Part shown: positions 659 through 59,732 of the stretch, piece after piece | How the letters are laid out: every line of letters starts with the position of its first letter | Numbering within the stretch: position 1 is the first letter of the stretch | Assembly: GCA_964509605.1 (NCBI GenBank) | Contig: CAZDXF010000002.1 | Coordinates: 25,514 to 89,513, forward strand | Reading direction: 5' to 3' | Source: an uncultured Candidatus Saccharibacteria bacterium | Lineage (GTDB): Bacteria > Patescibacteriota > Minisyncoccia > Phycocordibacterales > Zambryskibacteraceae | DNA: 64,000 bases | Made by a program: the position numbers and the translations under genes | Notes under the pieces: model-generated | What the model saw: the letters and a program-made list of their open reading frames with translations, nothing else | Told to the model about the DNA's origin: nothing | The model's database searches: none

Positions 659-699
659 GGCGAGCTTTTTAGGTTTTAGCTTATAGTATTTTAAATACA

Positions 700-1500
700 A
701 ATTAAATAAAAACCCCTCTGGAAAACACTTATATTCGTAAGCTTGCGAATTGCTATGCTCAGCTACCCGCTTGTGCAATGTTTTCCAGAGAGGTTTTTAT
801 GTTGGAAATGCAAAACGCAATACCAAAAAAGTTTCGGTACAAGCTTTTTGCTGGTTTGGGTAAAAACTTGACATTTATAGTGTTTGGGAGTGTAGTTAAT
901 AGAGAAATGGTGGAATGTCCACCAACGACCCGATGTTTCGGGAGGGTTCTTAACAAGGAGCAATTTGATGACCAAAATCGAAACCTTGCCGGGCGAGCGC
1001 TTGGTAGGACCGCTTGAAGACCTGATTTACAAGGCCCAGAAAGGCGTGGTTGACTTGTTGAACCCCAACCATTGCAAGTTTGCAAGGGCAGGATTTACCC
1101 TCTATCTCCACCCGTGTCAGAGATTTGTGAGGATAAATGGCCTCACTCTGAAGAAGCACCTACGAGAAGCTGGCATCATGGACCGGTCACGCACCCTTGA
1201 GAGCTCGCTCGTCAGGGGTTGGCAAGCCAACCCAGAGACTTATCCAGAGGAATTGAAGGGTATTTTCCCTTTTCTCTGGGGAAGTATTCGGGATCGCGCT
1301 GGATGTTGTCTTGTCCCTTGTCTTGAATGGAGCTGTGACCAAGTGATTGTTCGGTGGGGCTTGGTTCACAATGCTTGGGGTAAAAAATTCCCCGCCCTCC
1401 TCGCAAATTTAGTACCGTGAGGAGTTTACAATCATTATCAAGAAGTTCTGAATTTTCCGCCCTCTCGCACTCACGTGTTGGGGGGGCGGTTTTCCATGTG
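700..1500. ncRNA. Unassigned GC-rich structured region, possibly ncRNA; identity unknown
   Basis: GC is clearly elevated against AT-rich flanks. Only overlapping Trp/Cys-rich ORFs in several frames, none with an RBS. Long hairpin 708-726/781-798 encloses the near-palindrome attcgtaagcttgcgaat. A GC stem plus T-run hairpin sits at ~1455-1495. Confidence 0.2.
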
Positions 1501-3944: not shown

Positions 3945-4016
3945 AAAAAATCTTCCACCCCGAACGAAACAACGCTCCACTGACGTGGAACGGTTTCTTA
4001 CGGGGCGAGAAGTGGT
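3945..4016. repeat. Structured repeat, family B, copy 1 (AAAAAAtcTTCCACCCCGAACGAAAC...ACGGGGCGAGAAGTGG)
   Basis: ~70% identical to 15341-15410, with shared nested hairpins (cccc/gggg outer stem, gaaac/gtttc inner stem). Confidence 0.4.
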
Positions 4017-4628
4017 CTATTTAAGCGCGGTTTTGTAGTTTTGTTCTATGTTAGCCCAATTTACATTGGAAAAAAAATCTTCAACATACTGTTTTTTACC
4101 GCTTGGATTATAGTCTGCAACATACGCATGTTCCCACATATCAAGTCCGAGAATCATTTTTGCACCATTTAGCATGCCTAAGTGTTGTTCGTCCACCCAC
4201 GAATTTAAAAGTCTGTCACTTGCCTTGTCGTACCACAATACCTGCCAACCAATACCTCTGGTGGTAGTTGCTTGAGTTTTAAATTCTTCGAGCCAAAGCT
4301 CAAAAGATCCCCAAATTTCTTCAATTTTTTTCTTGAGCTCTGAATCTTCAGATATGGTTTTATAACCGCCTTTAAAAGAGGAAAAATATATTTCGTGATT
4401 CCTCATTCCGTTGTATTCAAAGCTGAACCTGCGTCCCAACTCTCCCACCACATAAGGAGCGAAGTTGTCACCCTCGGCATATTTTCTGTATTCAGGCATT
4501 TTTTCGATAATAGAATTGGCATTTTTTACATAACCGGAATATAGTTTCAAATGCTCCTCTATGTTTTTTTCAGAAATTCCTTTGAGCTTGGGAATTTCAA
4601 ATTTCTTTTCAACAAATTGTTTTGTCAT
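4017..4628 (-). CDS. sodA: Fe/Mn superoxide dismutase family protein
   Basis: C-terminal DMWEHAYVADY motif and overall SOD architecture. The N-terminal His-ligand region is diverged. Confidence 0.65.
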   Translation of the reverse strand: MTKQFVEKKFEIPKLKGISEKNIEEHLKLYSGYVKNANSIIEKMPEYRKYAEGDNFAPYVVGELGRRFSFEYNGMRNHEIYFSSFKGGYKTISEDSELKKKIEEIWGSFELWLEEFKTQATTTRGIGWQVLWYDKASDRLLNSWVDEQHLGMLNGAKMILGLDMWEHAYVADYNPSGKKQYVEDFFSNVNWANIEQNYKTALK

Positions 4629-14188: not shown

Positions 14189-14198
14189 AAAATCATGA

Positions 14199-14281
14199 AT
14201 CCCGTTAGAAAGGACAAAAAAATAGGTTGCTATGGTCAAATTGCTTATCAATATGTTATAAGTAGTACTTTCTAACGGGAT
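14199..14281. repeat. Palindromic intergenic element, family A, copy 2
   Basis: ATCCCGTTAGAAA (14199-14211) / TTTCTAACGGGAT (14269-14281). The 3' arm ends in the rplB ATG. Confidence 0.5.
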
Positions 14282-15119
14282 GAAAAAATTTAGACCAACA
14301 ACACCATCACGCAGGCAAATGACCACCATCAATTATGCCCGCATCCTAACAAAAAAAGACCCAGAAAAGTCTCTCACTTCTGGTTTTAAGCGTTCTGTTG
14401 GAAGAAATAACCAAGGTAGAATTACAGTCAGACACAAAGGTTCTGGCCACAAAAGACTTTATAGACAAGTTGATTTTTCATACAACAAAATAAATATTCC
14501 CTACACTATAAAATCTATCGAATACGATCCAAATAGAACCGGTTTTATAGGTTTGGCGGTTTATAAAGATGGTGAGAAAAGATATGTCCTTCTTCACAAA
14601 GAAGCTAAAGTTGGCGATGAATATATTGTTTCCGAGAACGCTTCAATAACAGCGGGAAACAGGCTCCCTCTTAAAAATATAGGAGTTGGAACATTTGTTT
14701 TCAATGTTGAAGTTAAGCCAAGAGGGGGGGCGAAACTCGGAAGGTCTGCTGGTAATTTTATAGAAGTTGTAGCAAAGGATGCTGGTTATATTGACTTGAA
14801 AATGCCTTCAAGTGAAATTAGAAAAGTTAGCGAAAATTGCTGGGCTACTGTCGGTGAGGTATCAAACGAAGAGAATCGTTTGGTCAATCTTGGAAAAGCG
14901 GGCAGAAGCAGATGGTTGGGTATTAGGCCTACAGTTAGAGGTTCTGCAATGAACCCAGTTGATCATCCGCACGGAGGTGGAGAGGGGCGTTCAGGAAGAG
15001 GTCACAGGAGAGCTCGAACAGCTACCGGAAAACCAATAGGAAAGGGTCAAAAATCTCGCCGATCAAAGAAATACTCAAATAAGTTTATTGTTAGAAGAAG
15101 GAAGGTGGGGAAGAAGTAG
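14280..15119 (+). CDS. rplB: 50S ribosomal protein L2
   Basis: L2 sequence (GRNNQGRITVRHKGSGHKR...). Confidence 0.9.
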   Translation: MKKFRPTTPSRRQMTTINYARILTKKDPEKSLTSGFKRSVGRNNQGRITVRHKGSGHKRLYRQVDFSYNKINIPYTIKSIEYDPNRTGFIGLAVYKDGEKRYVLLHKEAKVGDEYIVSENASITAGNRLPLKNIGVGTFVFNVEVKPRGGAKLGRSAGNFIEVVAKDAGYIDLKMPSSEIRKVSENCWATVGEVSNEENRLVNLGKAGRSRWLGIRPTVRGSAMNPVDHPHGGGEGRSGRGHRRARTATGKPIGKGQKSRRSKKYSNKFIVRRRKVGKK

Positions 15120-15340
15120 AAACTAGCTGTTAGTTTGCTTTTAAATCCGAATCCCCTATATAGCTTAAATCCAAAAGCTAGAAGCTAACTTTCATTTGAC
15201 ACAAAGCCCTTATTTGTATAGTATCTTTGGAAGCTCGTTCGAGCTTTTTATGTTCGTATTTTTATTTTTTCAGGTCTTAGCTGTTTAAACTAAAAGCTAG
15301 CGACTAAAAACTGACAACTTATTTAATGACACGCTCAAGC

Positions 15341-15410
15341 AAAAAAGGTCCACCCCAAACGAAACGACAGTCGGCAAGCGACCCGTTTCGTACGGGGCGA
15401 GAGGGGGCGG
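15341..15410. repeat. Structured repeat, family B, copy 2, in the unusually long rplB-rpsS spacer
   Basis: AAAAAAGGTCCACCCCAAACGAAAC...ACGGGGCGAGAGGGGG. Flanked by a 27-bp duplication of the rpsS start (15326-15352 = 15451-15477). Confidence 0.4.
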
Positions 15411-15449
15411 GTTGGATGTAGGTATTGCAGATGTAGAGTATTATCATTT

Positions 15450-15791
15450 ATGACACGCTCAAGCAAAAAAGGTCCATATGTATACGAAAGACTCCTCAAG
15501 AAAATTGAGGGTAAAAAACCAGCAGATGTTGGACTTATTAAGACTTGGGCAAGAGATAGTCAGATATCTCCAGAAATGGTTGGTTTTACTTTTGGAGTCC
15601 ACAACGGCAAAGAGCATTTAGAAGTTTTTGTTACAGAAGATATGGTTGGTCACAGATTTGGCGAATTTTCTCCTACCCGCAAATTTGTTCGACACGGAGG
15701 AAAGATGCAGAAAGAGCTTGAACAGAAAAAGAAAGAGTCTGAAATAGCAGCAGCTCAAGCCGCTAAAGCATCAACTGCTTCAGCTAAGTAA
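15450..15791 (+). CDS. rpsS: 30S ribosomal protein S19
   Basis: S19 sequence with a C-terminal extension. Confidence 0.9.
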
Positions 15792-18123: not shown

Positions 18124-18131
18124 TGGAATGA

Positions 18132-18249
18132 ATCCCGTAAGAAATCGCGATCGCTTTATTACAAAACAAACATGTCGACAATAAATAATTTATCAGTTAT
18201 ATTCACAGTGGATTACGATCAGATGATCGCGATCTATTTCTAACGGGAT
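18132..18249. repeat. Palindromic intergenic element, family A, copy 3
   Basis: ATCCCGTAAGAAATCGCGATCGC / GATCGCGATCTATTTCTAACGGGAT. The 3' arm ends in the rplX ATG (18248). Confidence 0.5.
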
Positions 18250-18553
18250 GAAAATCAAAAAAGGAGACAATGTAATAGTGATTTCAGGTAAAGACAAAGG
18301 AAAAACAGGAAAAGTTTCTCGCTCTTTTCCTCGTGAAAACAAAGTAATTATTTCTGGGGTAAATATTAAAAAAATTCACAAGAGACCGACCAAGTCAGGT
18401 CAAAAAGGTCAGGTAATAGATCAAGCTTCCCCTATTCATGTATCAAATGTTATGATTGCCGATCCAAAAAATAACAAACCAAGCAGGGTGGGTTTCTTAA
18501 AAAAAGGGGATAAGAAAGAAAGAGTTTCAAAAAAAAGCGGATCTGCAATATAA
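18248..18553 (+). CDS. rplX: 50S ribosomal protein L24
   Basis: L24 KOW-domain sequence (MKIKKGDNVIVISGKDKGK). Confidence 0.85.
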   Translation: MKIKKGDNVIVISGKDKGKTGKVSRSFPRENKVIISGVNIKKIHKRPTKSGQKGQVIDQASPIHVSNVMIADPKNNKPSRVGFLKKGDKKERVSKKSGSAI

Positions 18554-23111: not shown

Positions 23112-23687
23112 ATGAATTGTAATACTTTTATATTTGTTGGTGCGCCAGGTTCTGGAAAGGGTACCCAAGCTAATTTTTTGTCTGAAAAGCTCGGCTTGCC
23201 AATTTTTTCTATCGGTGGAAGGCTTAGGGAAATAGTAGCCGAAAACTCTCCTTTGGGTAAGAAAGTCGGAGAAGTTATAGATAAAGGAGGGCTGATGCCT
23301 TCTTGGTTTGTTTTATATTTTTGTGAAGATGTTCTTTTTAATTTGAAAGAAGAAGAGGGTATTATTTTTGATGGTGTTGGGCGAAAAAAAGAAGAGGCCG
23401 AAATTTTTTCGCAAGCATGTCTCTGGTTGGGTAGAGATTTCAAAGTTGTTTTTATTGATGTACCAGAAGATGTGGTTAAGGAAAGAATAGAAAAGCGCAG
23501 ACAAGAGGGTCGTAAAGATGATGCTCCAGAGCGTTTAGCTGAAAGATTTAAAAATTATCATGATCACACTCTGCCTGCGATTGAACATTTTCGTTCTCTT
23601 GGAAACTTAATTGAAGTAAACGGGAATCAGGCACCAGAAGAAGTGTTTTCAGAGGTTTGGGAAAAAGTCTCATCCTTATGTCAATAA
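23112..23687 (+). CDS. adk: Adenylate kinase
   Basis: P-loop GAPGSGKGTQ; position after secY. Confidence 0.85.
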   Translation: MNCNTFIFVGAPGSGKGTQANFLSEKLGLPIFSIGGRLREIVAENSPLGKKVGEVIDKGGLMPSWFVLYFCEDVLFNLKEEEGIIFDGVGRKKEEAEIFSQACLWLGRDFKVVFIDVPEDVVKERIEKRRQEGRKDDAPERLAERFKNYHDHTLPAIEHFRSLGNLIEVNGNQAPEEVFSEVWEKVSSLCQ

Positions 23688-24451
23688 ATATCAAAAATGA
23701 AAAAGAGATAGAGATTCTCAAAGAAGGCGGAAAGCGCCATTCTTTTATTTTAGAAGAACTTGCTAGAGCGGTTAAGCCGGGCATTTCTTCTTTAACTTTG
23801 AATGAAACGGCAGAGAAGCTTATTGCTGAAGAGGGAGATATTGCCGCTTTTTTAAACTATCGTCCAAAAGGGGCGCGAAGAAAATACCCCGCCTCTCTCT
23901 GTGTTTCTGTAAATGATGAGATTGTGCACGGAATTCCAAATGAAGGTGAAAAAATTTTAAAAGATGGAGATATTGTAACTTTAGATCTCGGTCTTTCTCA
24001 CAAAGGCCTCATAACCGACTCTGCAATCACAGTCGGAGTGGGATCAATAAGTAAGGAGAATGAAGAGTTAATTCAAGCCACAGAGGAAGCTTTATGGGCG
24101 GGTATTGCGGAAGCGAAAGCTGGAAATCATATAGGGGATATTGGTTTTGCCATTGAGTCAGTAGCAAAGAAAAAAGGGTTTTCTTTGGCCCAAGGGCTTG
24201 CTGGTCACGGTGTTGGTCACAGTGTCCACGAAGAGCCATTTGTACCAAATGCTGGCAGAAAAGGGGACGGTCCAGAGCTTAAGCCTGGCATGGTTTTGGC
24301 CATAGAACCAATGCTTGTGGTCGGCAAAGGTGACATTGTTTTATCTGGCGATGGTTATACTTATAAAACCAAGGATAAAAGTTTTTCAGCTCATTTTGAG
24401 CATACCGTAGTTATAACAGAAGGTGAGCCGATCGTGGTAACTTCTGGGTAA
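23678..24451 (+). CDS. map: Methionine aminopeptidase type I
   Basis: Pita-bread fold motifs (metal-binding D, D, H, E, E residues). Confidence 0.85.
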   Translation: MSINIKNEKEIEILKEGGKRHSFILEELARAVKPGISSLTLNETAEKLIAEEGDIAAFLNYRPKGARRKYPASLCVSVNDEIVHGIPNEGEKILKDGDIVTLDLGLSHKGLITDSAITVGVGSISKENEELIQATEEALWAGIAEAKAGNHIGDIGFAIESVAKKKGFSLAQGLAGHGVGHSVHEEPFVPNAGRKGDGPELKPGMVLAIEPMLVVGKGDIVLSGDGYTYKTKDKSFSAHFEHTVVITEGEPIVVTSG

Positions 24452-24557
24452 ACCCCGTTAGAAGCTCGTGCGAGACATTAAATCCGGTGTTCGTCAGAAC
24501 TAAACTTTTCCTTTATTCCACTGGCAAGATCGTGAGGGGCTATGCTTCTAACGGGGT
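24452..24557. repeat. Palindromic intergenic element, family A, copy 4
   Basis: ACCCCGTTAGAAGC (24452-24465) / GCTTCTAACGGGGT (24544-24557). Starts immediately after the map stop. Confidence 0.45.
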
Positions 24558-33895: not shown

Positions 33896-34116
33896 AAGTT
33901 TTTGTTTGTTTGCTGATAAATCTGACCCCAGTCTATGTTTTTATAGACTCATTTTATTAAGACGAATCAAGGCCAATTTTATTTCCACCGCTTCCGTTTA
34001 TATCTATACAACAATTCTGCAGAATTGTTGTATAGATTAGGACACTTTTTTAATCAAACTAAGGCTGTGATATGTGTGGAACGAAAAATACCCGAAATGA
34101 ATCGGGTATTTTCGAT

Positions 34117-34522: not shown

Positions 34523-34608
34523 GTCGTATCAGCTGTTAGCTTATAGCTTTCAGCTCTTAGAAAAGAAATCTTCCGTCCTGAAAGCTAATACCTATAAACT
34601 AAAATCTA

Positions 34609-35102: not shown

Positions 35103-37040
35103 ATGGCAAATCCCAACACTAAGAAAAAGAAACAGCATAAGGTTGTTATAAAAAGGGGCTTTAAACAGGGGTCTGGCCCTCAAAATCCAATGTGGAAAAA
35201 TTTTCTTTCCACCCTCCTTGTTTTTCTCATCATAATGACACTTTACTCCGCTGTTTCCGAGAGGAGGGAAAAAACCGAGCAAATTCCGATTTCACAACTA
35301 GCTTCGGCTGTAATAGAAGAGAAGGTTTCAAAGATAATTGTAAGCGGAGATAAACTGGAAGTTGAATATTCAGACGGTTCAAAAGTTGATTCAAAAAAAG
35401 AAGCCGAATCTTCTCTTTCTGAAACTCTGTCAATTTACGGAGTTTCTCCCGAAGTTTTAGCGAAAGTTCAGATTGAAATAAAGTCACAGGGAGGTCTTGG
35501 TTTCTGGATCTTGAATTTATTACCGATTATCATACCGATTTTATTTATAATATTTTTTATTTGGTTTTTGTCCCGCCAAGTCAAAGGGGCCGGCATGCAG
35601 GCATTTACTTTTGGCCAATCAAAGGCGCGAATTATTCCAGCTGGAGACACAAAACAAAAAGTCACATTTAAAGATGTCGCTGGTGTGAAAGAAGCAAAGC
35701 AAGAGCTTTATGAAATTGTAGATTTTCTAAAAAGCCCGAAGAAATTTTTAGATATTGGCGCTCAAATTCCAAAAGGAGTTTTACTTATGGGTGCTCCTGG
35801 AACAGGTAAGACGCTTTTGGCTAGAGCTGTGGCGGGTGAGGCAGGAGTGGCATTCTTTTCAATTTCTGGTTCAGAATTTGTAGAGATGTTTGTGGGCGTC
35901 GGAGCTTCTAGGGTTAGAGACTTATTTCAGCTTGCAAAAAAGGCATCTCCGGCAATTATTTTTGTTGATGAAATTGACGCTGTTGGAAGGGTGAGAGGAG
36001 TTGGCGCCGGTGGTGGAAATGATGAAAGGGAGCAAACTCTAAACCAAATTTTGGTGGAGATGGATGGTTTTGAACCAAATGAAAAGGTGATTGTAATGGC
36101 CGCGACCAATAGACCCGATGTGTTAGATCCAGCACTTCTTCGTCCGGGCAGATTTGATAGGAGAGTTGTGATTGATTTGCCAGATAGGGGTGATAGGGAA
36201 GAGATTCTTTTAATACACGCACGACAGAAACCTTTAGCAGAAGATGTGAATTTGAAGGTTATTGCAGAGCGTACCCCAGGTTTTTCTGGTGCGGATTTGT
36301 CCTCCCTTATGAATGAAGGAGCTATTCTTGCCGCTAGGGAAGATCGCACCAAAGTTTCGCAGTTTGATCTTATTCGTTCTATAGAAAAAGTAATGCTAGG
36401 TCCTGAGAGGAAAAGCCATCTTCTATCAGTAAAAGAAAAAGAAATTACTGCGTACCACGAAGCGGGACACGCCTTAGTTGGTTCAGTTCTTGAATATTCT
36501 GATCCTGTTCATAAAATTTCTATAATTTCTCGTGGTCGTGCCGCTGGATACACATTGAATCTTCCTCTTGAAGATAGAAGATTACAATCTAAAAAAGAAT
36601 TTTTGGACGATATAGCGATGTCACTTGGAGGTTATGTCGCAGAAAGGTTGGTGTTTGGTGATATTACTACAGGCCCGTCTAATGATCTGCAAGTTTCTAC
36701 TGCCTTAGCACGAGATATGGTGACCAAATATGGAATGTCTGACAAAATGGGCCCGATTGCTTTGGAAAGTTCTTCCGGCAAAACTCTTTTTGGCAGGGGA
36801 GTTGATGACAGAGATTATTCAGAAAAAGTTGGAGCCGAAATTGATGCTGAAGTTTCAAAGATAATGAAAGAAGCGTTGGCAAAAGCTCAAGATATTCTTG
36901 AAAAACATCGCAAAGTTTTGGATGTGATCTCTTTGAGACTTATAGAAGTTGAGACAATAGAAAGGGATGAATTTGAAGATATATTGGTTGCAAACGGCAT
37001 CACCCCAAAAAAGAAAAAAGACATAGAGCACCAGGTTTAG
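35103..37040 (+). CDS. ftsH: ATP-dependent zinc metalloprotease FtsH
   Basis: AAA+ Walker [18 protein letters not shown] zinc site. Extended -10 tgTATAAT lies upstream at ~35084-35091. Confidence 0.9.
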
Positions 37041-37043
37041 TTT

Positions 37044-37084
37044 GTCCGCCCTCCAGGATTCGAACCTGGGACCCCGGAGGTATA
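37044..37084 (-). pseudogene. Partial duplicate (3' half) of the adjacent tRNA-Ile gene
   Basis: 41 bp identical to 37100-37140 (acceptor 3' strand, T-arm, anticodon stem), then diverges. Confidence 0.5.
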
Positions 37085-37099
37085 TGAACGATTACATAG

Positions 37100-37173
37100 T
37101 CCGCCCTCCAGGATTCGAACCTGGGACCCCGGAGGTATAAGCTCCGTGCTCTAACCAACTGAGCTAAGGGCGG
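37100..37173 (-). tRNA. tRNA-Ile (anticodon UAU)
   Basis: Cloverleaf: acceptor CCGCCCU/AGGGCGG, D-stem GCUC/GAGC, anticodon stem CGGAG/CUCCG with loop CUUAUAC, T-stem CCAGG/CCUGG, T-loop UUCGAAU. CCA not encoded. Confidence 0.65.
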
Positions 37174-37249
37174 ACTTTGGAATCATTCATATAAGTAGGT
37201 CGTTCGGGTCTCATAAAAGCAAGCTTTTGCGAGACCTCTCACTATCACT

Positions 37250-37335
37250 TATAAGCTCCATGCTCTATCAACTGCCCGTCCCGTATGAAATAGACTGCTT
37301 TTCAGTCGTTATTTCATACGGGAAGCTAAGGGCGG
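37250..37335 (-). pseudogene. Degenerate tRNA 5'-half copy interrupted by a 47-nt perfect nested hairpin
   Basis: ccgcccttagct [cccgtatgaaata gactgcttttcagtc gttatttcatacggg] cagttgatagagcatggagcttataa resembles the tRNA-Ile 5' half. No T-arm or acceptor 3' strand follows. Confidence 0.4.
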
Positions 37336-37511
37336 ATGTAGGAGAATACTATAGCAAAAAATCTTTCCAGACAATTATTCAATGATGAATAAATTTTGTT
37401 AAAATTTTAACTTTCTAAGTTTGAATTTGATTATAGACAGATATTAGCTTTTAAACAACCACATTTATTTATGGTGATATTATAAAAAGATATAAAATTT
37501 AATTTATTCTA

Positions 37512-42407: not shown

Positions 42408-42821
42408 TTATTTTCCGACTTGGGTTATGAAAAATGCTACAGTCGTTGAGAACCCGGTGATAAAAAATCCCCAAGCCATATCAGCAAGAGAGAGTTTCCA
42501 GCTCCATCCCGAAAGAGTAGCGAGGTTTGTCATATCGTATATTCCATAGACTATGAGTCCAAAAACTCCTCCTATTAAAAATGCTTTTATCAAGGTGGCG
42601 TCTGAACTAACTTTGGGTAGGGCAAAAAGGACCACTCCGAGAGCTAAGAAAATATAAGCGAACACTACGCCAGACCAATCTGGAGAAAGTTTCTCTCCGA
42701 CTCTACGCGCCAAGGCCCCTAGGTTGGTGTTATAAAAATCAGCCATCACTATGGATAGCCAAATATAGTCAAGAATTACAAAAGAAACGAGCGCACCAAT
42801 AAAAGGTTGTATAAAGCTCAT
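42408..42821 (-). CDS. Small multi-TM membrane protein (DUF2177-like)
   Basis: 4 TM segments. Confidence 0.45.
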   Translation of the reverse strand: MSFIQPFIGALVSFVILDYIWLSIVMADFYNTNLGALARRVGEKLSPDWSGVVFAYIFLALGVVLFALPKVSSDATLIKAFLIGGVFGLIVYGIYDMTNLATLSGWSWKLSLADMAWGFFITGFSTTVAFFITQVGK

Positions 42822-42842
42822 CCTAAAATTTTAGCACAATTT

Positions 42843-43298
42843 TTATTTTAGATCGGCTATTATTATTTTTTTCATTTGCATCATTTTTGCAAAAGCTTTT
42901 GGGTCTTGAACCCATTCATCAATCCCTTCTGGTGCCACTTGCCAGCTAAGACCGTATTTGTCTTTAAGCCAACCACAAACACTCTCTTGTCCACCGTTCG
43001 AAGTGAGTTTTTCCCAGTAGTAATCTATTTCCGATTGATCTTTACAGTTAATCAAGAATGAAACAGATTCATTAAATTTAAATTCAGATCCAGCATTTAT
43101 TGCGATAAAGCTCTGTCCTAGAATCTCAAATTCTATAGTCAAAACTTTTTCAGCAAATTCTTTTTGGAAGTCCGCAAGTCCTTCTTTTGGATAATAATTT
43201 ATTGAAATTATTTTTCCTTCTGGAAAAACAGAAAGATAAAAATCAACAGCTTCTTTGGCATTTCTATCAAACCATAAATTTGGAACAATCTTTTTCAT
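42843..43298 (-). CDS. VOC-family PhnB-like protein (3-demethylubiquinone-9 3-methyltransferase domain)
   Basis: N-terminal PNLWFD...EAVDFY motif typical of PhnB-like VOC proteins. Confidence 0.65.
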   Translation of the reverse strand: MKKIVPNLWFDRNAKEAVDFYLSVFPEGKIISINYYPKEGLADFQKEFAEKVLTIEFEILGQSFIAINAGSEFKFNESVSFLINCKDQSEIDYYWEKLTSNGGQESVCGWLKDKYGLSWQVAPEGIDEWVQDPKAFAKMMQMKKIIIADLK

Positions 43299-43552
43299 AT
43301 TTTTTTAAAATCCTTTCTGGCGGTGTATTTTAAAAATAGCTCGAACTGCATTCCCTCGCCGAGCTTCGCGCGGCTCGGGTGCGGCGGGGCAAAAATGAGC
43401 GGCTCCGCCTCGCACACTGACAATTTTAAGTTTTTCTTTGGCGGAATACAAATTCGAGCGTGCGAAGCACCCACAAAATAGTTCTTTCAAACTCAAAAAG
43501 AAAGGCGCCGTACCCGGAGGTCGTGCGCCTGATTGCGACCGCATGACGCGGT

Positions 43553-43891
43553 CTAGTCCTTCTTGCCCTGGACATACTCGGGAACCTCGGCGAGCATCTC
43601 CGAGAGCATCCAGCCGGCCACAGCTTCCTTGTCCTCGTGCGAGAGGCCGAAGGTGCCGAGCAGGCCGAGGAAGCAATCCTTCTGGTGTCGCTGTACCGTC
43701 TCGTCGCCGGACTTCCATTTCCAGTTGGCGATGTTGGCACCGCCGAAGAAGACGCGGCTTGCGTAGCTCGACCACGGATTGTAGAGTTTGAATTCGGGCG
43801 GACAGAGCTTCGCGAGCTCACGCTCGTTGGAGAGTCCACCGAATGCCTGGCCGTGACCAGCGAACAGCGGGGACGCCGTCTGCGTTTCCAT
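43553..43891 (-). CDS. Hypothetical protein encoded in the high-GC island segment
   Basis: ATG at 43889-43891, preceded by AAGGAGGTG 7 nt upstream. 112 aa (METQTASPLFAGHGQAFGG...). The overlapping ORFs in other frames are GC artefacts. Confidence 0.5.
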   Translation of the reverse strand: METQTASPLFAGHGQAFGGLSNERELAKLCPPEFKLYNPWSSYASRVFFGGANIANWKWKSGDETVQRHQKDCFLGLLGTFGLSHEDKEAVAGWMLSEMLAEVPEYVQGKKD

Positions 43892-44127
43892 CGTATTCAC
43901 CTCCTTCAAGGTTTAGTTTCCAACCTAGACGTCGTGCCTAAGTTGATAAGTACCATAGCACGACTTGAATTATCAGTCAAGAAACGACCGAGCGTTGCTT
44001 CTTGGAAAAAATCAGAATGAAAAAATTTCTTTTACCCTTATTGATAAAAGCATTTCTTTTTCGCCAAAAATTCCATACGAATTAGCCGCCGAGCGAAGCG
44101 AGGCGGACAGCCTGCATTTGCAAAATC

Positions 44128-44320
44128 CTTTCTGCGGTGATGTATTAGCCTTTGCGCGAACTCATTTTGAACGAAAGGAATGATGCGCGCCTCGTCCGCT
44201 CCCTTCGGTCGCGATCCCAAAACCAAAAATTTTCCTTCCTTTCTTAGATTTTCGGCGGGGGGTGTGGGGGGGAGCCGACAAAAAATGGAAAGGAAATTTT
44301 TGGTTTTGATTCGCCGCTTC
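44128..44320. repeat. 193-bp inverted repeat, left copy (IR-A)
   Basis: Perfect reverse complement of 45783-45975. Begins with the core CTTTCTGCGG. Confidence 0.9.
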
Positions 44321-44533
44321 AGACTACAAAAAGAGTAGATATTTGTATTTTAACACATTTGACTACTCTTTTCTCCGTCTTCGCGGCGAGACGAGGCGCT
44401 TCCAATTCGGTTGCGCTGAAGCGCATCATATTTGTATTGTGCTTGCCCCGCCCGCCCAGTGCGCGCACAAAGCCGTGCCGTTTTGAAGAAATATTATAAA
44501 ACGGCAAAACGGCGGGGATGGCTCCCTAGAAAA

Positions 44534-45481
44534 CTAATAACTAAAATTGACAGTCACGCTATCGCTGGAAGAATCAACTTTTCCGCTACTTGCCCCGCAA
44601 GTAAGTTGATACGTAGTCACGCCTGTCTTTTCATTTCCTGTCCAAACATTTTCAGATCCACTGGTGGACTTGGCACCAGACCAATATGTATCGCCTGAAG
44701 CAGTACAGTAATCAGAATTGTTTGATGTCCAACTGAAATTAGAGTAGCCAGCCGATTTTGTTATCGGGCCATCTGAATTGTTTATTTTTAGATCAGCTGA
44801 TGGCAGTTGCTGTGTTAACTGAAATGGCACTGTCACTGGATTCGAAGAATTAGTGCCGCCAGCTCCGGTACAGGAAACTGTATATGTCGTAGTCTGGGAA
44901 AGGGATACCGCCATCGACCCAGACGGTGATAATTTTGATTTTTCGAAATTACAGTAAGTCGCATTTGTTGATGACCAGTAAAGTGTAATTGTTCCGGGCT
45001 TCCCGTCAGAAACAATTGACGTTGGGTTCGCGTATAGGTACACGCTCGGAGACGGAATTGTTGTCTGGATAGGGTTAGGTGTCGGTGTAGGATTCGTTGG
45101 GGTTGGAGTTGTAACCGACGGAATTACTGATGCTGTGTTTCCACATTTACTGTTCCATAAGTTCCGTGTCTTTGGGCCATAAGTGCCGAAACCAAAAGTG
45201 TTCGATGGAATTCCAAGCCACGCTTGCAGTTGCGACACTCGACCGCCTGGCTCGGTGTCAAAATTGCCATAAGAGAGGTCGGCAAAGGTACTGCACGACA
45301 GCACACCTGTGGACCCCTGCAATTGGGCAATCTGTGCTTGAAGCGCTTTAATCTGCGCGAGCAAGGCCTGTATTTGAGCGGCAACATCAGTTGTTTGTGC
45401 AAAAGTTGGCGTTGCAAAGCCAATGGACACAAGAATTCCAAGCGTCAAGAATCCTGTGGCAATATATTTTTTCATGGTCAT
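44534..45481 (-). CDS. Secreted surface protein: signal peptide, Ala/Gln coiled coil, Thr/Pro linker, Ig-like beta domains
   Basis: N-terminal signal MTMKKYIATGFLTLGILVSIGFATPTFA, then AQIQALLAQIKALQAQIAQLQ, then TPTPTNPTPTPNP, then Ser/Thr/Gly-rich beta domains. Confidence 0.65.
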   Translation of the reverse strand: MTMKKYIATGFLTLGILVSIGFATPTFAQTTDVAAQIQALLAQIKALQAQIAQLQGSTGVLSCSTFADLSYGNFDTEPGGRVSQLQAWLGIPSNTFGFGTYGPKTRNLWNSKCGNTASVIPSVTTPTPTNPTPTPNPIQTTIPSPSVYLYANPTSIVSDGKPGTITLYWSSTNATYCNFEKSKLSPSGSMAVSLSQTTTYTVSCTGAGGTNSSNPVTVPFQLTQQLPSADLKINNSDGPITKSAGYSNFSWTSNNSDYCTASGDTYWSGAKSTSGSENVWTGNEKTGVTTYQLTCGASSGKVDSSSDSVTVNFSY

Positions 45482-45494
45482 TTATTATTGATAA

Positions 45495-45716
45495 TTATTT
45501 AATAAAATACTTAATATCCTTACCATATAGTTTAGCAAATCGTTGAAGTTCGACAACATCAACTCTTTGCTGTCCTGATTCAACATTTGAGATGTGCGAT
45601 TGCGGACGTTTCAACTTTTTTGCCACTTGCACTTGGGTCAATCCTACTTCTTGCCGAGCCGCCCGCAACCGCTCAACAAAATAGGCATATTCCTTTGTGT
45701 GGATTGACTTAACCAT
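45495..45716 (-). CDS. XRE-family helix-turn-helix transcriptional regulator
   Basis: LTQVQVAKKLKRPQSHISNVESGQQ HTH motif. Putative promoter at 45720-45780 (minus strand). Confidence 0.75.
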   Translation of the reverse strand: MVKSIHTKEYAYFVERLRAARQEVGLTQVQVAKKLKRPQSHISNVESGQQRVDVVELQRFAKLYGKDIKYFIK

Positions 45717-45782
45717 ATGATACTATGGTCTATCCAAACATTCAATATCCAAACTTTAGATATTGTGATAAACTAGATTTTG

Positions 45783-45975
45783 GAAGCGGCGAATCAAAAC
45801 CAAAAATTTCCTTTCCATTTTTTGTCGGCTCCCCCCCACACCCCCCGCCGAAAATCTAAGAAAGGAAGGAAAATTTTTGGTTTTGGGATCGCGACCGAAG
45901 GGAGCGGACGAGGCGCGCATCATTCCTTTCGTTCAAAATGAGTTCGCGCAAAGGCTAATACATCACCGCAGAAAG
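45783..45975. repeat. 193-bp inverted repeat, right copy (IR-A')
   Basis: Perfect reverse complement of 44128-44320. Ends with CCGCAGAAAG. Confidence 0.9.
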
Positions 45976-46096
45976 AAACTTCCAAATCCGAAAGGTGGGA
46001 AGAAGCCCGCGCCGAAGGCGCGGGGCTAGGCAAAATGTTCCGTCGCTCCGCGACGAATTGGGACGGAATGGGCAGGGCGAAATGGGCGGATTTGTC
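45966..46096. repeat. 131-bp inverted repeat, left copy (IR-B); shares the CCGCAGAAAG core with IR-A'
   Basis: Reverse complement of 47512-47642 with one mismatch. Contains the hairpin gcccgcgccgaaggcgcggggc. Confidence 0.85.
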
Positions 46097-46122
46097 CTTG
46101 TTTCAATCTAAAAGCAATTTAT

Positions 46123-47691
46123 ATGTCCAAACCAAAGTATTTTCTTTACGCTCGCAAGAGCATCGAGGACGATGACCGACAAGTGATGTCCATTGAGGCA
46201 CAGCTTTTTGAGTTGCGAGAATTGGCGCGTAAAGAAAATCTTGAAATTCTTGAGGAATTTCAAGAGTCGAAAAGCGCAAAGACGCCTGGACGCGAGGTAT
46301 TCGGCGAAATGATGTTAAAAGTAGAGAAATTGGATGGTGTCGGCATATTAGCGTGGCATCCCGATCGCCTCGCGCGTAATTCGATTGACGGTGGACGAGT
46401 AATTTACGCCGTGGACACTCGCAAGGTTGTGTCTTTGCGCTTCCCGACATTTTGGTTTGAACCAACCCCGCAAGGGCTCTTTATGTTGCAAGTGGCGTTT
46501 GGGCAGAGCAAATATTATTCTGATAACTTATCCGACAATATTAAGCGAGGTGTCCGCCAAAAATTGAGACGTGGCGAATGGTTGAACTTAGCTCCCTTTG
46601 GCTATCAAAACAACCCGCGTATTAGAAATATTGAACCTCATCCGACAAATGCTCGCGTGGTGAAGTTAGCTTTTGAGGAATACGCCAAAGGTTCGCACAC
46701 TTTTATTTCGCTCGCGCAATTTTTGGCGGACTTAGGTGTGGTAACAAAACACCAAACGCCACTCGCCAAAGTTTCCATCAAACGACTTCTTACTCATCGA
46801 GCATATCTCGGTTTCGTGAAGCATGGACAAGAATGGTTTGATGGAAACTTTGAGCCAATTATTTCTCCCGCATTGTTTGAAGCCGTGCAGAAAGTATTGC
46901 AAACGAAGGAAAGGCCGCGCAAAAGGAAAATCAAGCATGATTTTCCTTTTACCGGACTTTTTCGATGTGGCGAGTGTGGCAGTATGATTTCCGCACAGTG
47001 GGCAACTGGAAAGTCTGGTCGTCGTTATCGGTATTATCGGTGCTCGAAAAAGCGCGGCCATTGTTCGCAAGCTTATTTACAAGAAAGTGAACTTACGAGG
47101 CAAATCTGTGCACGGCTTCAAACAATTTCGCTTTGCGATCGCTATACCGACTGGATGTTAGATAAAGTGAAACTGTGGGAGCACGAGGAAATTGGAGCGT
47201 CGCAAAGCGAGGTTCAAAATCTTTCCGATAGTATCAAAGCGAACGAGGAGCGCATGGAAAAACTACTCTCGGCGTATTTAGATGGTGATGTACCAAAAGA
47301 GGTTTACCTTAAACGAAAAGATGTTCTCATGCGCTCTCTCGCCGCTTTGAAAGAGAAAAAGAAAGATTTTGAACGCGGAAGAAAAAATTGGGTCGAACCC
47401 TTGCGGGAATGGATTTTAGATATGAAACAAGCCGATTTTTTGTCCTCTTCGTCTGATTTGTACCAAATCAAGTCGTTCGTCCAAAAAATCGGAACGAACC
47501 CCTTGGTTCGTGACAAATCCGCCCATTTCGCCCTGCCCATTCCGTCCCAATTCGTCGCGGAGCGACGGAACATTTTGCCTAGCCCCGCGCCTTTGGCGCG
47601 GGCTTCTTCCCACCTTTCGGATTTGGAAGTTTCTTTCTGCGGAAGGGGAGGGATTCGAACCCTCGGACCGATTTCTCGGTCAACACATTAG
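46123..47691 (+). CDS. Large serine recombinase (resolvase/invertase catalytic domain + recombinase domain + zinc ribbon)
   Basis: N-terminal YARKSIEDDDRQ...SIEAQ catalytic serine motif, DRLARN, C-terminal CGECGS...YYRCSKK zinc ribbon. The ORF tail reads through IR-B' into the tRNA, so the true stop is uncertain. Confidence 0.8.
   Translation: MSKPKYFLYARKSIEDDDRQVMSIEAQLFELRELARKENLEILEEFQESKSAKTPGREVFGEMMLKVEKLDGVGILAWHPDRLARNSIDGGRVIYAVDTRKVVSLRFPTFWFEPTPQGLFMLQVAFGQSKYYSDNLSDNIKRGVRQKLRRGEWLNLAPFGYQNNPRIRNIEPHPTNARVVKLAFEEYAKGSHTFISLAQFLADLGVVTKHQTPLAKVSIKRLLTHRAYLGFVKHGQEWFDGNFEPIISPALFEAVQKVLQTKERPRKRKIKHDFPFTGLFRCGECGSMISAQWATGKSGRRYRYYRCSKKRGHCSQAYLQESELTRQICARLQTISLCDRYTDWMLDKVKLWEHEEIGASQSEVQNLSDSIKANEERMEKLLSAYLDGDVPKEVYLKRKDVLMRSLAALKEKKKDFERGRKNWVEPLREWILDMKQADFLSSSSDLYQIKSFVQKIGTNPLVRDKSAHFALPIPSQFVAERRNILPSPAPLARASSHLSDLEVSFCGRGGIRTLGPISRSTH
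47512..47642. repeat. 131-bp inverted repeat, right copy (IR-B'); abuts and overlaps the 3' end of tRNA-Ser
   Basis: Reverse complement of 45966-46096. The core CTTTCTGCGG at 47633-47642 includes the tRNA's last bases. Confidence 0.85.
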
Positions 47692-47726
47692 CAGTGTGCT
47701 GCATTCGACCGCTCTGCCACCCTTCC
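47640..47726 (-). tRNA. tRNA-Ser (anticodon GCU), class II with long variable arm
   Basis: Acceptor GGAAGGG/CCCUUCC, D-stem GCA/UGC, anticodon stem GCACA/UGUGU with loop CUGCUAA, variable arm GACCGAGAAAUCGGUC, T-stem GAGGG/CCCUC, T-loop UUCGAAU. Confidence 0.8.
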
Positions 47727-47783
47727 TTTTTGTAGGCTGTAATCTATCATACTCTGCTTTCACTTCAAAACATCCCCCACTAT

Positions 47784-55813: not shown

Positions 55814-55928
55814 TTTCTTATCCACAGAGAGTTTTAAATTTGTTTTTTTTGGCTTATAATATAAGTACACGTTTAAAAAACGGCTGTCTTGGAAGGACAG
55901 GTCGATTAAAAATTAAATTATTTTAAAA

Positions 55929-56390
55929 ATGAAAAAAGATAGAGGTTTTACACTTATAGAGCTTTTGGTGGTCATAGCGATCATCGGGATTCTATCTTCA
56001 GTTGTCTTGGCGAGTTTGAATGTAGCCAGAGGAAAGGGTGCTGACGCTGCTACAAAATCAAACTTAAGTAATGCTAGAGCACAGGCTGAGGTTTATTACG
56101 ATGGAAATAGCCAAGCTTATACCAACCTTTGCACTGCAACAGGTGCTAACCCTGGTATTGGAACAATGCTGACCGCAGCACAATCTAGTTCTGGGGCGGC
56201 GAGCATAGTAACTGCAAACGGAACTGCAGGAACTGCTACTACTGTTATATGTCATGCTGATGCAAACGGTTGGGCTGTTTCAGCTCCACTTAGATCAGAG
56301 ACGGGGTATTGGTGTGTTGATAGTGCTGGTACTTCTGCAAAGAAAACAAATGTTTTGGCGGCTAACTCAATGGCTTGTCCAGCAACATAA
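55929..56390 (+). CDS. pilA: Type IVa major pilin
   Basis: Leader MKKDRG|FTLIELLVVIAIIGIL and C-terminal Cys pair. A strong terminator follows. Confidence 0.85.
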   Translation: MKKDRGFTLIELLVVIAIIGILSSVVLASLNVARGKGADAATKSNLSNARAQAEVYYDGNSQAYTNLCTATGANPGIGTMLTAAQSSSGAASIVTANGTAGTATTVICHADANGWAVSAPLRSETGYWCVDSAGTSAKKTNVLAANSMACPAT

Positions 56391-56412
56391 TCTGCTTTTA
56401 GTTTCTTTTTTC

Positions 56413-56442
56413 AAAAACCCCGGTTTACCGGGGTTTTTGTTT
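56413..56442 (+). terminator. Rho-independent terminator after pilA
   Basis: aaaaccccgg-ttta-ccggggttttt. Confidence 0.6.
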
Positions 56443-56490
56443 GGGGATAAAATGCTGTGTTATAAACGAAATAATCTGTATAATTGATTT

Positions 56491-56958
56491 ATGAATAGAC
56501 AAAAAGGTTTCACTCTCATAGAACTTCTAGTAGTAATTGCCATCATTGGAATTCTATCTTCAGTTGTTTTGGCGAGTTTGAATACTGCTAGAGGGAGAAG
56601 TGCGAATGCTGCTATAAAATCAAATTTAGCAAATGTAAGAGCCCAAGCAGAGCTCTTTTACGATACGACTGGAAACAGTACATATGGCGCTTTTGGTACG
56701 GCTACTGCAAATTGTCTGACAACATCAGCAAGCCTGTTTGCTGATACTAAAATTAGGTCATTTATAACTTCTGCTCAAAGTGCCGGAGGGGGCACAGCTC
56801 TTTGCGCTTCTCAACCACTTTCGAATTCAACTTCTTTTGTAATTTCCGTTCAACTCAAACAAACAGAGGGCACATTTAACTATTGGTGTGTGGATTCTTC
56901 CGGAAGTTCTAAAGGACACGCTTCTGCTATTAGCGGAAGCCTAACAGCTTGCCCATAA
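56491..56958 (+). CDS. Type IVa pilin (second copy)
   Basis: Leader MNRQKG|FTLIELLVVIAIIGIL. Confidence 0.8.
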   Translation: MNRQKGFTLIELLVVIAIIGILSSVVLASLNTARGRSANAAIKSNLANVRAQAELFYDTTGNSTYGAFGTATANCLTTSASLFADTKIRSFITSAQSAGGGTALCASQPLSNSTSFVISVQLKQTEGTFNYWCVDSSGSSKGHASAISGSLTACP

Positions 56959-56968
56959 AAATAATTTA

Positions 56969-57144
56969 ATGAATAGACAAAAAGGTTTTACCCGCACACC
57001 TGTTTTAAGTAAATTTTCCAGAAATTTGTTCGGATTATTTTTTGCAAACCAAACTCAAAATGAGGGAGGCAAAGAATTAGATAAAACAGGTGTTAGCTCT
57101 GCCAAAGCAGAGCGCGGGTTTACTCTTATAGAACTTCTCGTGGT
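56969..57144 (+). repeat. 176-bp perfect direct repeat (second copy 57589-57764) spanning the 5' ends of two adjacent pilin genes
   Basis: Identical from the ATG through gaacttctcgtggt. Identity stops exactly there. Confidence 0.9.
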
Positions 57145-57544
57145 AATAGCGATCATTGGAATTTTAGCTTCGGTTATTACGGTAAATCTTACTAGTACAA
57201 AAAATAAATCTTCAAATACTGGGATAAAGACAAATTTAGCGACGGTTCGTTCTCAAGCAGAAGTTTATTACAATCAAAACAGCTATGTGTACGGATCTTA
57301 TTCAGGAGCGTGCCCCACAGTTTCAGGAACCGGACATGTCTTTTTGGATCCTGTTGTTGTTTCTGCAATGAATGCAGCAAAATCTGCCAGCGGGGGTACA
57401 GCTCAGTGCTGGGCAAATGGCAATCAGTGGTCGGCTTCCGTCCAACTCCGAGTTCCTGAGGGAAGTGCCAATCATTGGTGTGTGGATTCAACCGCAGCGG
57501 GCAGAGGTACAGCCACAGCACCAAGCAGTTCACTTTGTCCATAA
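56969..57544 (+). CDS. Pilin with unusually long (49-aa) leader
   Basis: MNRQKGFTRTPV...KTGVSSAKAERG|FTLIELLVVIAIIGIL. The 5' 176 bp are identical to the next gene. Confidence 0.7.
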   Translation: MNRQKGFTRTPVLSKFSRNLFGLFFANQTQNEGGKELDKTGVSSAKAERGFTLIELLVVIAIIGILASVITVNLTSTKNKSSNTGIKTNLATVRSQAEVYYNQNSYVYGSYSGACPTVSGTGHVFLDPVVVSAMNAAKSASGGTAQCWANGNQWSASVQLRVPEGSANHWCVDSTAAGRGTATAPSSSLCP

Positions 57545-57588
57545 AGTGTTATAATAGTGTTCTTAACGGTTTAATTAATTTTTTCAAA

Positions 57589-58185
57589 ATGAATAGACAA
57601 AAAGGTTTTACCCGCACACCTGTTTTAAGTAAATTTTCCAGAAATTTGTTCGGATTATTTTTTGCAAACCAAACTCAAAATGAGGGAGGCAAAGAATTAG
57701 ATAAAACAGGTGTTAGCTCTGCCAAAGCAGAGCGCGGGTTTACTCTTATAGAACTTCTCGTGGTCATCGCCATCATTGGTATACTTTCTTCAGTTGTCTT
57801 GGCGAGTTTGAATGCTGCTAGGGCAAAAGGAGCCGATGCGTCCATAAAGTCCAATCTCTCAAATATTAGGCCTCAAGCCGAAATATATTTTGATGACAAT
57901 GGTCATTACGGAGCTGATGTAGATGATAACTGCTCAGCTGGAATTTTTGCAGAGGCAACAATGTCCGCGGCCATTTCTCAAGCTTCCACTGTTAGTGGTA
58001 GTGCTGCAAGTTGTTTTGCAGAGGATGGCATTACTGGATCAGGGGGTACAGCTGCTAACAGCTGGGCCGTTTCAGTTCCTCTCAAGAGCGATCCATTAGT
58101 GCATTGGTGTGTTGATTACACAGGTATTTCTACTTCTACACCAAACGGAGCAGATATTACCAGTGATGTCGCATATTGCCACTAA
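57589..58185 (+). CDS. Pilin with long leader (start moved to MNRQKGF)
   Basis: Same 49-aa leader as 56969, with a distinct mature domain. A terminator follows. Confidence 0.7.
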   Translation: MNRQKGFTRTPVLSKFSRNLFGLFFANQTQNEGGKELDKTGVSSAKAERGFTLIELLVVIAIIGILSSVVLASLNAARAKGADASIKSNLSNIRPQAEIYFDDNGHYGADVDDNCSAGIFAEATMSAAISQASTVSGSAASCFAEDGITGSGGTAANSWAVSVPLKSDPLVHWCVDYTGISTSTPNGADITSDVAYCH

Positions 58186-58200
58186 AATGTAAGATTAAAA

Positions 58201-58240
58201 TCACCCCGTTCCGATGAGTCGGAACGGGGTGATTTGTTAT
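58201..58240 (+). terminator. Rho-independent terminator
   Basis: atcaccccgttccga-tgag-tcggaacggggtgat, then a T-run. Confidence 0.6.
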
Positions 58241-58251
58241 ATAATTAAAAA

Positions 58252-59729: not shown

Positions 59730-59732
59730 AAT

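Follow-up and report, generated by a model that had tools for sequence, protein, structure and literature searches.

A family of hairpin repeats and the duplicated rpsS start in the ribosomal protein operon of a Paceibacterota genome

The ribosomal protein operon on contig CAZDXF010000002.1 (assembly GCA_964509605.1, positions 25,514 to 89,513, a 64,000-nucleotide stretch referred to below as the window) contains two copies of the first codons of rpsS, the gene for ribosomal protein S19, and between them a short hairpin of a repeat family, family B, that recurs elsewhere in the window and on other contigs. The most probable explanation, to which we give roughly 60%, is a single event in which a small mobile palindrome entered the start of rpsS and duplicated its target, leaving an intact gene behind a decoy start. 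Coordinates are those of the window, and features lie on its plus strand unless stated otherwise.

The two copies of the rpsS start (15323-15352 and 15447-15476, from a repeat search) form a 30-nt direct repeat identical at 29 of 30 positions, the mismatch being TTA versus TTT ahead of the ATG, and ATTT precedes both copies. From the ATG onwards, 27 nt (ATGACACGCTCAAGCAAAAAAGGTCCA) match exactly and occur within the window only at 15326 and 15450. A sequence-only reading of this stretch had recognized the exact 27-nt duplication; the spacing between the copies is 124 nt, not the 125 nt it gave, and the upstream extension amounts to 3 nt with one mismatch rather than about 4 nt. It had correctly described the decoy ATG as opening a 31-codon frame (15326-15421) that ends at TAG (15419-15421). 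The first nine of these codons are those of S19, the remainder reads through the hairpin, and the stop lies 28 nt ahead of the real ATG, whose context from -3 to +27 is the same as that of the decoy.

The hairpin at rpsS (copy 2 of family B, 15353-15409) abuts the duplicated target, beginning at 15353 directly 3' of the upstream copy, as had also been observed. It folds, and is made up of a core (15353-15397) and a subfamily tail, CGAGAGGGG. Between the hairpin and the real ATG lies a further 40-nt tail (15410-15449) that has no inverted-repeat partner and is unlike the flank of copy 1, the other close copy in the window. The right junction of the insert falls exactly at the ATG, matching insertions at rplB and rplX that are described below, and the insert, at 124 nt, is out of frame. 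Downstream of it rpsS is intact (15450-15791), encoding a 113-aa S19 (PF00203) that is 100% identical to protein P0001 and 85-92% identical to S19 of Candidatus Zambryskibacteria and other Paceibacterota, members of the candidate phyla radiation (CPR).

We compared the rpsS operon of the window with that of five relatives (loci L001/L002, L003, L004, L011 and L012). All five have a single rpsS start, and the decoy and the hairpin are absent from L001, L003, L004, L011 and L012 alike. The distance from the rplB stop (15119) to the rpsS ATG (15450) is 330 nt, as first reported, of which the hairpin insertion accounts for 124; calling this spacer abnormally long was mistaken, since the spacers of the relatives (170 nt, 843 nt, ~1.37 kb, 1.3 kb and ~2.4 kb) are hypervariable, carry unrelated cargo open reading frames (ORFs) and show such lengths to be typical of the clade.

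What the relatives have in common is a module composed of TTGACA, 17 nt, TAGTAT, an AAGCTCG..CGAGCTT hairpin and a T-run, located 13-20 nt ahead of the rpsS ATG. The window carries this module at 15196-15254, which indicates that rpsS has its own promoter in the clade. The promoter itself (TTGACA, 17 nt, TAGTAT; 15196-15224) gave 10/12 matches in a promoter scan, and its module lies upstream of rpsS in L001, L003, L004, L011 and L012. The 5'-terminal leader hairpin (AAGCTCG-TT-CGAGCTT plus T-run; 15231-15254) is found in L001, L003, L011 and L012 and is a separate hairpin in the minimum free energy fold. In the window the promoter lies upstream of the decoy copy and is now 226 nt upstream of the real ATG. 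Between the leader hairpin and the decoy copy stands an extra segment of 68 nt (15255-15322) that is absent from the relatives, where hairpin and ATG are 13-20 nt apart; it includes an AGCT-rich piece (15278-15310) that a repeat search related to 15165-15188. Searches of the window and all fetched loci for a donor of the 40-nt tail or of the extra leader segment gave only chance 10-14-mers. Taken whole, the leader shows no unusual degree of structure (z = -1.55), and Rfam searches of the whole window at the gathering threshold and of 15100-15500 at an E-value threshold returned only tmRNA, 2 tRNAs and two chance-level matches.

The hairpin at rpsS is one of a dispersed set. Where 0 matches to the frame CCCCRAACGAAAC...ACGGGGCGAGA would be expected in the window, 2 occur (3958-4010 and 15353-15402), and the regions around them (3945-4016 and 15341-15410) share 70% identity (52/74), a score reached in 0/2000 shuffles; each of the two folds into nested hairpins, in agreement with the original description of the pair, and their inner stems differ. 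The core of copy 2 is built from stems P1 (CCCC/GGGG) and P2 (CGAAACG/CGTTTCG) plus an inner hairpin, and the subfamily tail CGRGARGKG is common to copy 2, copy 1 and L009. Further copies had been called for in case the motif occurred in these two places by chance; the frame CCCCRAACGAAAC...GTTTCKTACGGGG, with a variable interior, is also present on five other contigs. A relaxed frame, CCCCNAACGAAAC-N(12-42)-GTTTCNTACGGGG, occurs on a single genome contig and in metagenome DNA, there in five stretches from four contigs, and scans of viral contigs with the hairpin patterns and with the rpsS-hairpin junction gave 0 matches. A covariance model built from six family-B copies scores them at 56-66 bits (copy 2 at 60.5 bits) and identifies weaker relatives at window 37279-37323, L006 12923-12967 and L009 9872-9905.

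Across family B the sequence of the outer stems is conserved, and each copy encloses a hairpin of its own. The stems persist in diverged copies: three arm pairs show compensatory changes, and the arm cells are paired in 96% of cases; sliding the partners lowers this to 58% or less. The 'minus' orientation gives the better fold in six of seven copies, A·C mismatches on one strand being G·U pairs on the other. The orientation of the copies relative to neighbouring genes is mixed, which argues against a function as a sense RNA. Inspection by eye also found no defining core of a ribozyme or protein-binding RNA (hammerhead, twister, kink-turn, loop E or group II intron domain V), and this candidate was rejected together with the evidence of mixed orientation.

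Copy 1 (3958-4014) lies between convergent genes and folds on the minus strand with -37.6 kcal/mol (z = -6.6). There it stands immediately past the stop of an ORF (4017-4628) named superoxide dismutase-like (SOD-like) from its sequence, and TTTTTT comes next, an arrangement suggesting that it may serve as a terminator. At copy 2 a hairpin with TTTTTT exists only antisense to rpsS, with no upstream gene in that direction, and the sense strand has no following U-run; a terminator scan lists neither of the two window copies. A third, more distant member, a perfect palindrome on the minus strand (CCCGTATGAAAT...ATTTCATACGGG; 37276-37324; 29.6 bits with the covariance model), occupies the D-loop of a partial tRNA-Ile copy and has no flanking duplication. 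On either side of the tRNA-Ile(UAU) gene concerned (37099-37173, minus strand) lie partial copies of it (37037-37343): its 3' half recurs at 37037-37084, 7 nt away, and its 5' half, broken at the anticodon loop and with the 49-nt palindrome in its D-loop, at 37249-37343. These partial copies look like scars of repeated integration or duplication.

Family B had been taken for a second repeat family. Its arms (CCCGAACGAAAC, CCCGTAMGAAAC) differ by only 1-2 nt from those of a longer set of elements, family A, and one element (L006a) is intermediate, having one arm of each type. On this comparison of the arms family B is not independent but a short subfamily of the CCCGTTAGAAA inverted-repeat family, within a superfamily whose arms read CCCG-WWM-GAAA. 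Fourteen copies carry such arms at both ends; they measure 43-115 nt and contain only incidental ORFs. Seven lie in the 64-kb window and more are on 5 other contigs. The terminal motif is absent from all six of the relatives' rpsS-operon loci (L001-L004, L011 and L012), which suggests that the family expanded in the lineage of the window. A search of the window for paired arms around a transposase gene found none.

Family A is recognized by the motif TTTCTAACGGG, which with one mismatch allowed has 12 matches in the window against 1.5 expected and defines four elements of 80-115 nt with arms (T)CCCGTTAGAAA / TTTCTAACGGG(A). All four stand at gene borders. The 80-nt element at the start of rplB (14200-14279 within 14195-14284) has arms TCCCGTTAGAAAG / CTTTCTAACGGG and is flanked by ATGAA, which provides a decoy ATG at 14195 and the real ATG at 14280; L004 has the corresponding empty site, TAGaaaatcATGAAAAAA, and the rplW-rplB spacer is 1-7 nt in L011 and L003. 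The 115-nt element at the start of rplX (18133-18247 within 18128-18252) is likewise flanked by ATGAA, with a decoy ATG at 18128 and the real one at 18248, and in four relatives the rplN-rplX spacer is 4-5 nt. Both have arms CCCGTWAGAAA/TTTCTAACGGG, and their decoys open short ORFs beginning MNPVRKDKK... (rplB) and MNPVRNRDR... (rplX). The order of decoy ATG, palindrome and real ATG is found three times in one operon, at rplB, rpsS and rplX. The remaining family-A elements lie at the stop codon of ORF 23657-24451 (24452-24557, with the direct repeat (GGG)TAAA) and at the junction of an RNase H-like ORF (1514-2266, its stop TAG within the left arm) with a ComEC-like membrane protein, both named from sequence (2257-2368). 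A different insertion, of 47 nt, occupies the rplW-rplB junction of L001 (1435-1487; aaaatcAATGAATGAAGTGATCG...ATTT followed by ATGAAAAAA), and on this account the ATGAA start region seems to be a recurrent target.

Copies outside the window show that the hairpin is mobile, because it is nested in itself, lies inside coding sequences and is found at other start codons. At L007 one family-B copy sits inside another, with a duplication of 4-7 nt, and L008 and L010 show the outer element uninterrupted. The msrB insertion (L007 3860-3975; L008 890-955) falls within the conserved GTGWPSF motif (...GTGWP[RTKQRHAAGPRGFVRGWP]SF...) and adds 54 nt in frame; in L007 the nested copy adds a further 51 nt, also in frame. 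Whereas a normal Paceibacterota MsrB has 123-127 aa, three longer proteins (P0121, P0122 and P0125) hold three different palindromes at the same site, of 54, 75 and 72 nt, all multiples of 3, free of stop codons and flanked by the 8-nt direct repeat GGCTGGCC (a Gly-Trp-Pro site). An L008-type copy with the same GGCTGGCC flanks interrupts a membrane-protein ORF in L010, again in frame. In-frame insertions into coding sequences are thus present at L007, L008, L010, L013 and L014, all of them except L010 having msrB genes of other Paceibacterota as the site. The reading frames and peptides read through these copies differ from one copy to the next, with no conserved encoded peptide. A second hot spot was seen between FDD and GP (P0148, L007). 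In L005, a match from a genome collection, an element sits on the start of queC as ATGAA, element, (G)TGAAAGCA..., that is, (G)TGAAAG. Duplication lengths in the superfamily are 5 nt (ATGAA, at rplB and rplX), 8 nt (msrB), 4-7 nt (the nested copy), none (copy 1 and L009a) and 27-30 nt (rpsS).

Taken with these observations, the arrangement at rpsS would be explained if 15353-15449 were foreign DNA containing a small, non-autonomous palindromic mobile element, a family-B member of the CCCG-WWM-GAAA superfamily, which has expanded in this Paceibacterota genome, and had been inserted within the first codons of rpsS. This would have duplicated the target from about -3 to +27 (15323-15352 and 15447-15476), by the same logic as the 5-nt ATGAA duplications at rplB and rplX and at about six times their length. 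The ATG and first nine codons all lie within the duplication, which leaves the downstream copy of rpsS complete and unaltered, and the upstream copy would have become a decoy start fused to the hairpin as the 31-codon ORF. An insertion after codon 9 that was in frame or had a short duplication would alter or destroy the essential S19, so that only an event that regenerated the start would be survivable. This is an argument about selection and not about mechanism. The 27-nt repeats should permit precise loss by slippage, and their near-perfect identity suggests a recent event.

Transcription most likely still begins at the conserved promoter (15196-15224) and would yield a leader of ~225 nt that carries the decoy ORF, the hairpin and the tail. 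Of 17 window starts between 6958 and 18564, a Shine-Dalgarno-like motif precedes two, and the upstream regions are A/T-rich; translation starts here seem not to be defined by Shine-Dalgarno pairing. Given this rarity and the identical -3 to +27 context, ribosomes could load at either ATG, and the decoy is probably translated into a 31-aa peptide. We see the arrangement as best understood as a tolerated selfish insertion rather than an evolved regulator. Some ideas about the insert were considered and dropped. The tail shares just a 9-mer, CCTACATCC, with the tRNA-Ile leader in an unconvincing alignment, and a TATTAT 5 nt ahead of the ATG has no usable -35 with which to form an outward promoter. 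Translational bypass of the T4 gene 60 type would call for matched take-off and landing codons around a coding gap that contains a hairpin. CCA codons do stand before both junctions, but the gap would be 124 nt and the downstream copy has its own ATG, which makes bypass unnecessary; the in-frame relatives inside coding sequences, all multiples of 3, argue for read-through.

Several observations sit uneasily with a single insertion and target duplication. The 27-30-nt duplication at rpsS contrasts with 4-8 nt in all other resolvable copies; the insert exceeds the element by 40 nt (15410-15449) that have neither an inverted-repeat partner nor a detectable source; copy 1 and L009a, the closest two copies of family B, have no flanking duplication; no transposase with matching ends was found when the arms in the window were examined; and the closest relative has ~90% S19 identity, the empty allele of the exact lineage not being among the relatives compared. 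The odd repeat length and the non-element tail would both be accounted for in one step by a templated insertion, through replication template switching or microhomology-mediated repair instead of transposition. A nascent strand at ...GGTCCA would jump to a family-B locus (left flank ...TTCCA directly before CCCC), copy the hairpin and the 40-nt tail, and return upstream of the ATG, between ...ATTT and ATG, duplicating the 30 nt between the points of return and departure. The left flank of copy 1, GCGAAAAAATCTTCCA, does resemble rpsS GCAAAAAAGGTCCA, with TCCA or more as possible microhomology; ATTT stands ahead of both repeat copies; and duplications of 4-8 nt across the superfamily are unlike the product of one enzyme with a fixed stagger. 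These microhomologies are short and A/T-rich, however, no donor locus with the tail was found in the 64-kb window or the fetched loci, and the right junction coincides with the ATG, as at rplB and rplX, which points to the same target recognition. We regard a templated origin, the main rival, as rather unlikely. The suggestion of an insertion with a long target duplication, made from the window alone, is supported by the mobile family, the rplB and rplX sisters with their empty sites and the single start in relatives.

The same early suggestion had offered, as its alternative, a regulatory leader that mimics the rpsS start. Such a leader might tune S19 synthesis by sequestering ribosomes, by termination-reinitiation or as a mimic of an S19-binding site, and it would draw on the decoy having the -3 to +27 context of the real start where Shine-Dalgarno motifs rarely define starts, on the decoy ORF ending 28 nt before the real ATG, and on the recurrence of the decoy-hairpin-start layout at rplB and rplX. 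It is nevertheless missing from 5/5 relatives, whose short leader is conserved, and its hairpin is a mobile repeat that also turns up in unrelated places, among them msrB and the position after the SOD-like ORF; with the leader z of -1.55 and no Rfam match, we consider it very improbable. Similarly slim is the case for a site-specific integration scar, in which a 27-30-nt att core at the rpsS start would survive as attL and attR around an element since deleted to 97 nt. The native promoter does lie upstream of the decoy copy, as attL predicts, and the window offers att-type partial-gene duplications at tRNA-Ile and a large serine recombinase beside tRNA-Ser. Yet such a scar needs a near-total internal deletion whose remnant, exactly at the junction, is a repeat-family hairpin, the nearest recombinase is the serine recombinase at 46123-47691 with no integrase nearby, and the short-duplication insertions at rplB and rplX are the simpler precedent. 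An assembly artefact, whether from two strain variants being joined or from a false loop at a repeated k-mer, deserves least credence. The assembly is of metagenome type and only one contig has this S19, but the 27-nt exact repeat and the 124-nt period are both below the usual length of reads and of final k-mers, real molecules must contain all three junctions, and rplB and rplX show the same layout. Tandem duplication of a 124-nt unit was rejected, as the repeat covers just 27-30 nt and 15229-15325 bears no relation to 15353-15449.

With an insertion and target duplication still the preferred account of rpsS, the element itself can be set beside known systems. It resembles MITEs (miniature transposable elements with inverted repeats) in being 43-115 nt long and non-coding with terminal inverted repeats, in its 7 copies in 64 kb and related copies in other genomes, and in duplications evident from empty versus filled sites. 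It departs from them in that the analysis identified no cognate insertion sequence sharing its ends (no arms surround a transposase gene in the window), in its duplication length, which is not fixed (4-5, 8 or 27-30 nt), in strongly favouring start and stop codons (ATGAA, TAAA) and, in msrB, a codon triplet that contains GGCC, and in family B being almost entirely hairpin. Insertion sequences with long or variable duplications include IS1630 (IS30 family, 19-26 bp), IS1549 and IS1634. As in those, the direct repeat at rpsS would be transposition-associated and tens of bp long; unlike it, they are autonomous and long duplications are their rule, whereas rpsS is a single outlier in a 4-8-nt family.

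Rickettsia palindromic elements (RPEs) are selfish palindromes that lie in frame within protein-coding genes (PMC10969869). The relatives of our element in msrB and the membrane protein similarly keep the frame and lack stops, at 54, 51, 72 and 75 nt. RPEs are longer, ~100-150 bp, and encode a conserved peptide, while the present copies are shorter and vary in frame and peptide. The window copies, moreover, stand at gene borders, and the 124-nt rpsS insert is out of frame, the gene being rescued by the start duplication. Mobile terminator-like hairpins are also on record, such as SPRITE in pneumococcus and Correia elements acting as terminators (PMC10969869). Copy 1 is comparable, presenting on the minus strand a strong hairpin and TTTTTT right after the SOD-like ORF stop; copy 2 is antisense to that orientation with no gene to terminate, and the other copies have no T-run. 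Repetitive extragenic palindromic (REP) elements, mobilized by REP-associated tyrosine transposases (RAYTs), include palindromes tagged with GTAG/CGTC (PMC3733652). They share with our elements a short, GC-rich, imperfectly palindromic form, a position at gene ends and a favoured strand ('minus' in 6/7 family-B copies), and differ in that our arms start with CCCC or CCCG without a GTAG/CGTC tag and flanking duplications are present. No RAYT gene was seen. Single-strand HUH-type transposition makes no target duplication. In the literature searched we found no description of MITEs or palindromic repeats of this sort in CPR bacteria or Parcubacteria, nor of this element family, its start-codon preference or the in-frame hot spot in msrB.

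A broader and decidedly speculative proposal is that the CCCG-WWM-GAAA hairpins are Paceibacterota-wide mobile palindromes that do not move like a classical MITE driven by a DDE transposase, and that home to start and stop codons (ATGAA, TAAA) and to the self-complementary GGCTGGCC codon triplet with variable duplications of 4-30 nt. The better folding of one strand hints that the element may act as a single-stranded hairpin. Were the proposal true, nick-and-copy or a template switch would explain how a 27-30-nt duplication rebuilt the start of an essential gene, and conserved enzymes with in-frame copies would gain new surface loops on translation.

The streamlined genome of this CPR bacterium tolerates what appears to be selfish DNA in its most essential operon, where insertions regenerate start codons (those at rplB and rplX by 5 nt, that at rpsS by 27-30 nt) and genes survive behind decoy starts. 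For annotation, gene callers may choose decoy starts or read through elements: a decoy ATG is the called start of the QueC ORF (MNPVRN...), and the MsrB proteins exceed their proper length by 18-35 aa. The one odd feature of the rpsS case is its gene-rescuing duplication, which is unusually long, and homing to start codons together with the in-frame hot spots is the part worth following. The family, its start-codon preference and the msrB hot spot offer a tractable case of how palindromes choose targets and how proteins absorb inserts.

The rplB-rpsS interval of the clade is an island with its own cargo: a 103-aa ORF, a GC-rich ORF of ~200 aa, two more ORFs (214 and 115 aa) and TruD. AGCT-rich repeats (TAGCTnnTAGCT) flank this cargo in the relatives' spacers and at window 15120-15195. 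Such repeats (e.g. AGCTGTTAGCTTATAGCTTTCAGCTCTTAG) recur at 15123-15188, 15278-15310 and 34531-34560, that is, after rplB, in the leader of rpsS and immediately ahead of the tmRNA gene, and the conserved 5' hairpin of rpsS is itself an AGCT palindrome; they could be a protein-binding or recombination motif. In L004 that 5' hairpin is split by a structured insertion of ~230 nt with long inverted arms (2355-2580; CCCCAGCCCCACTTTTGC...GCAAAAGTGGGGCGGGG), which caused a wrongly extended 145-aa S19 gene call. A palindromic element of ~100-130 nt (AAACCCCTCTGGAAAACA...TGTTTTCCAGAGGGGTTT) at window 690-830 is closely similar, by eye, to L003 1690-1830, within the rplB-rpsS spacer, and is another mobile repeat.

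Elsewhere in the window, the region 42800-47730 has a higher GC content (0.43-0.46 vs ~0.38) and ends in an ORF for a 522-aa protein resembling large serine recombinases, named from sequence (46123-47691), that overlaps tRNA-Ser(GCU) (47639-47726); it is probably an integrated element. A 36-nt perfect-type palindrome, TCTATACwACAATTCTGCAGAATTGTwGTATAGATT, occurs at 2013-2048 and 34003-34038 in copies 89% identical. Finally, 55900-60400 holds a tandem array of diverged genes of ~600 bp that have in common an N-terminal ...GFTLIELLVVIAI... motif, similar to the prepilin signal of type IV pilins.

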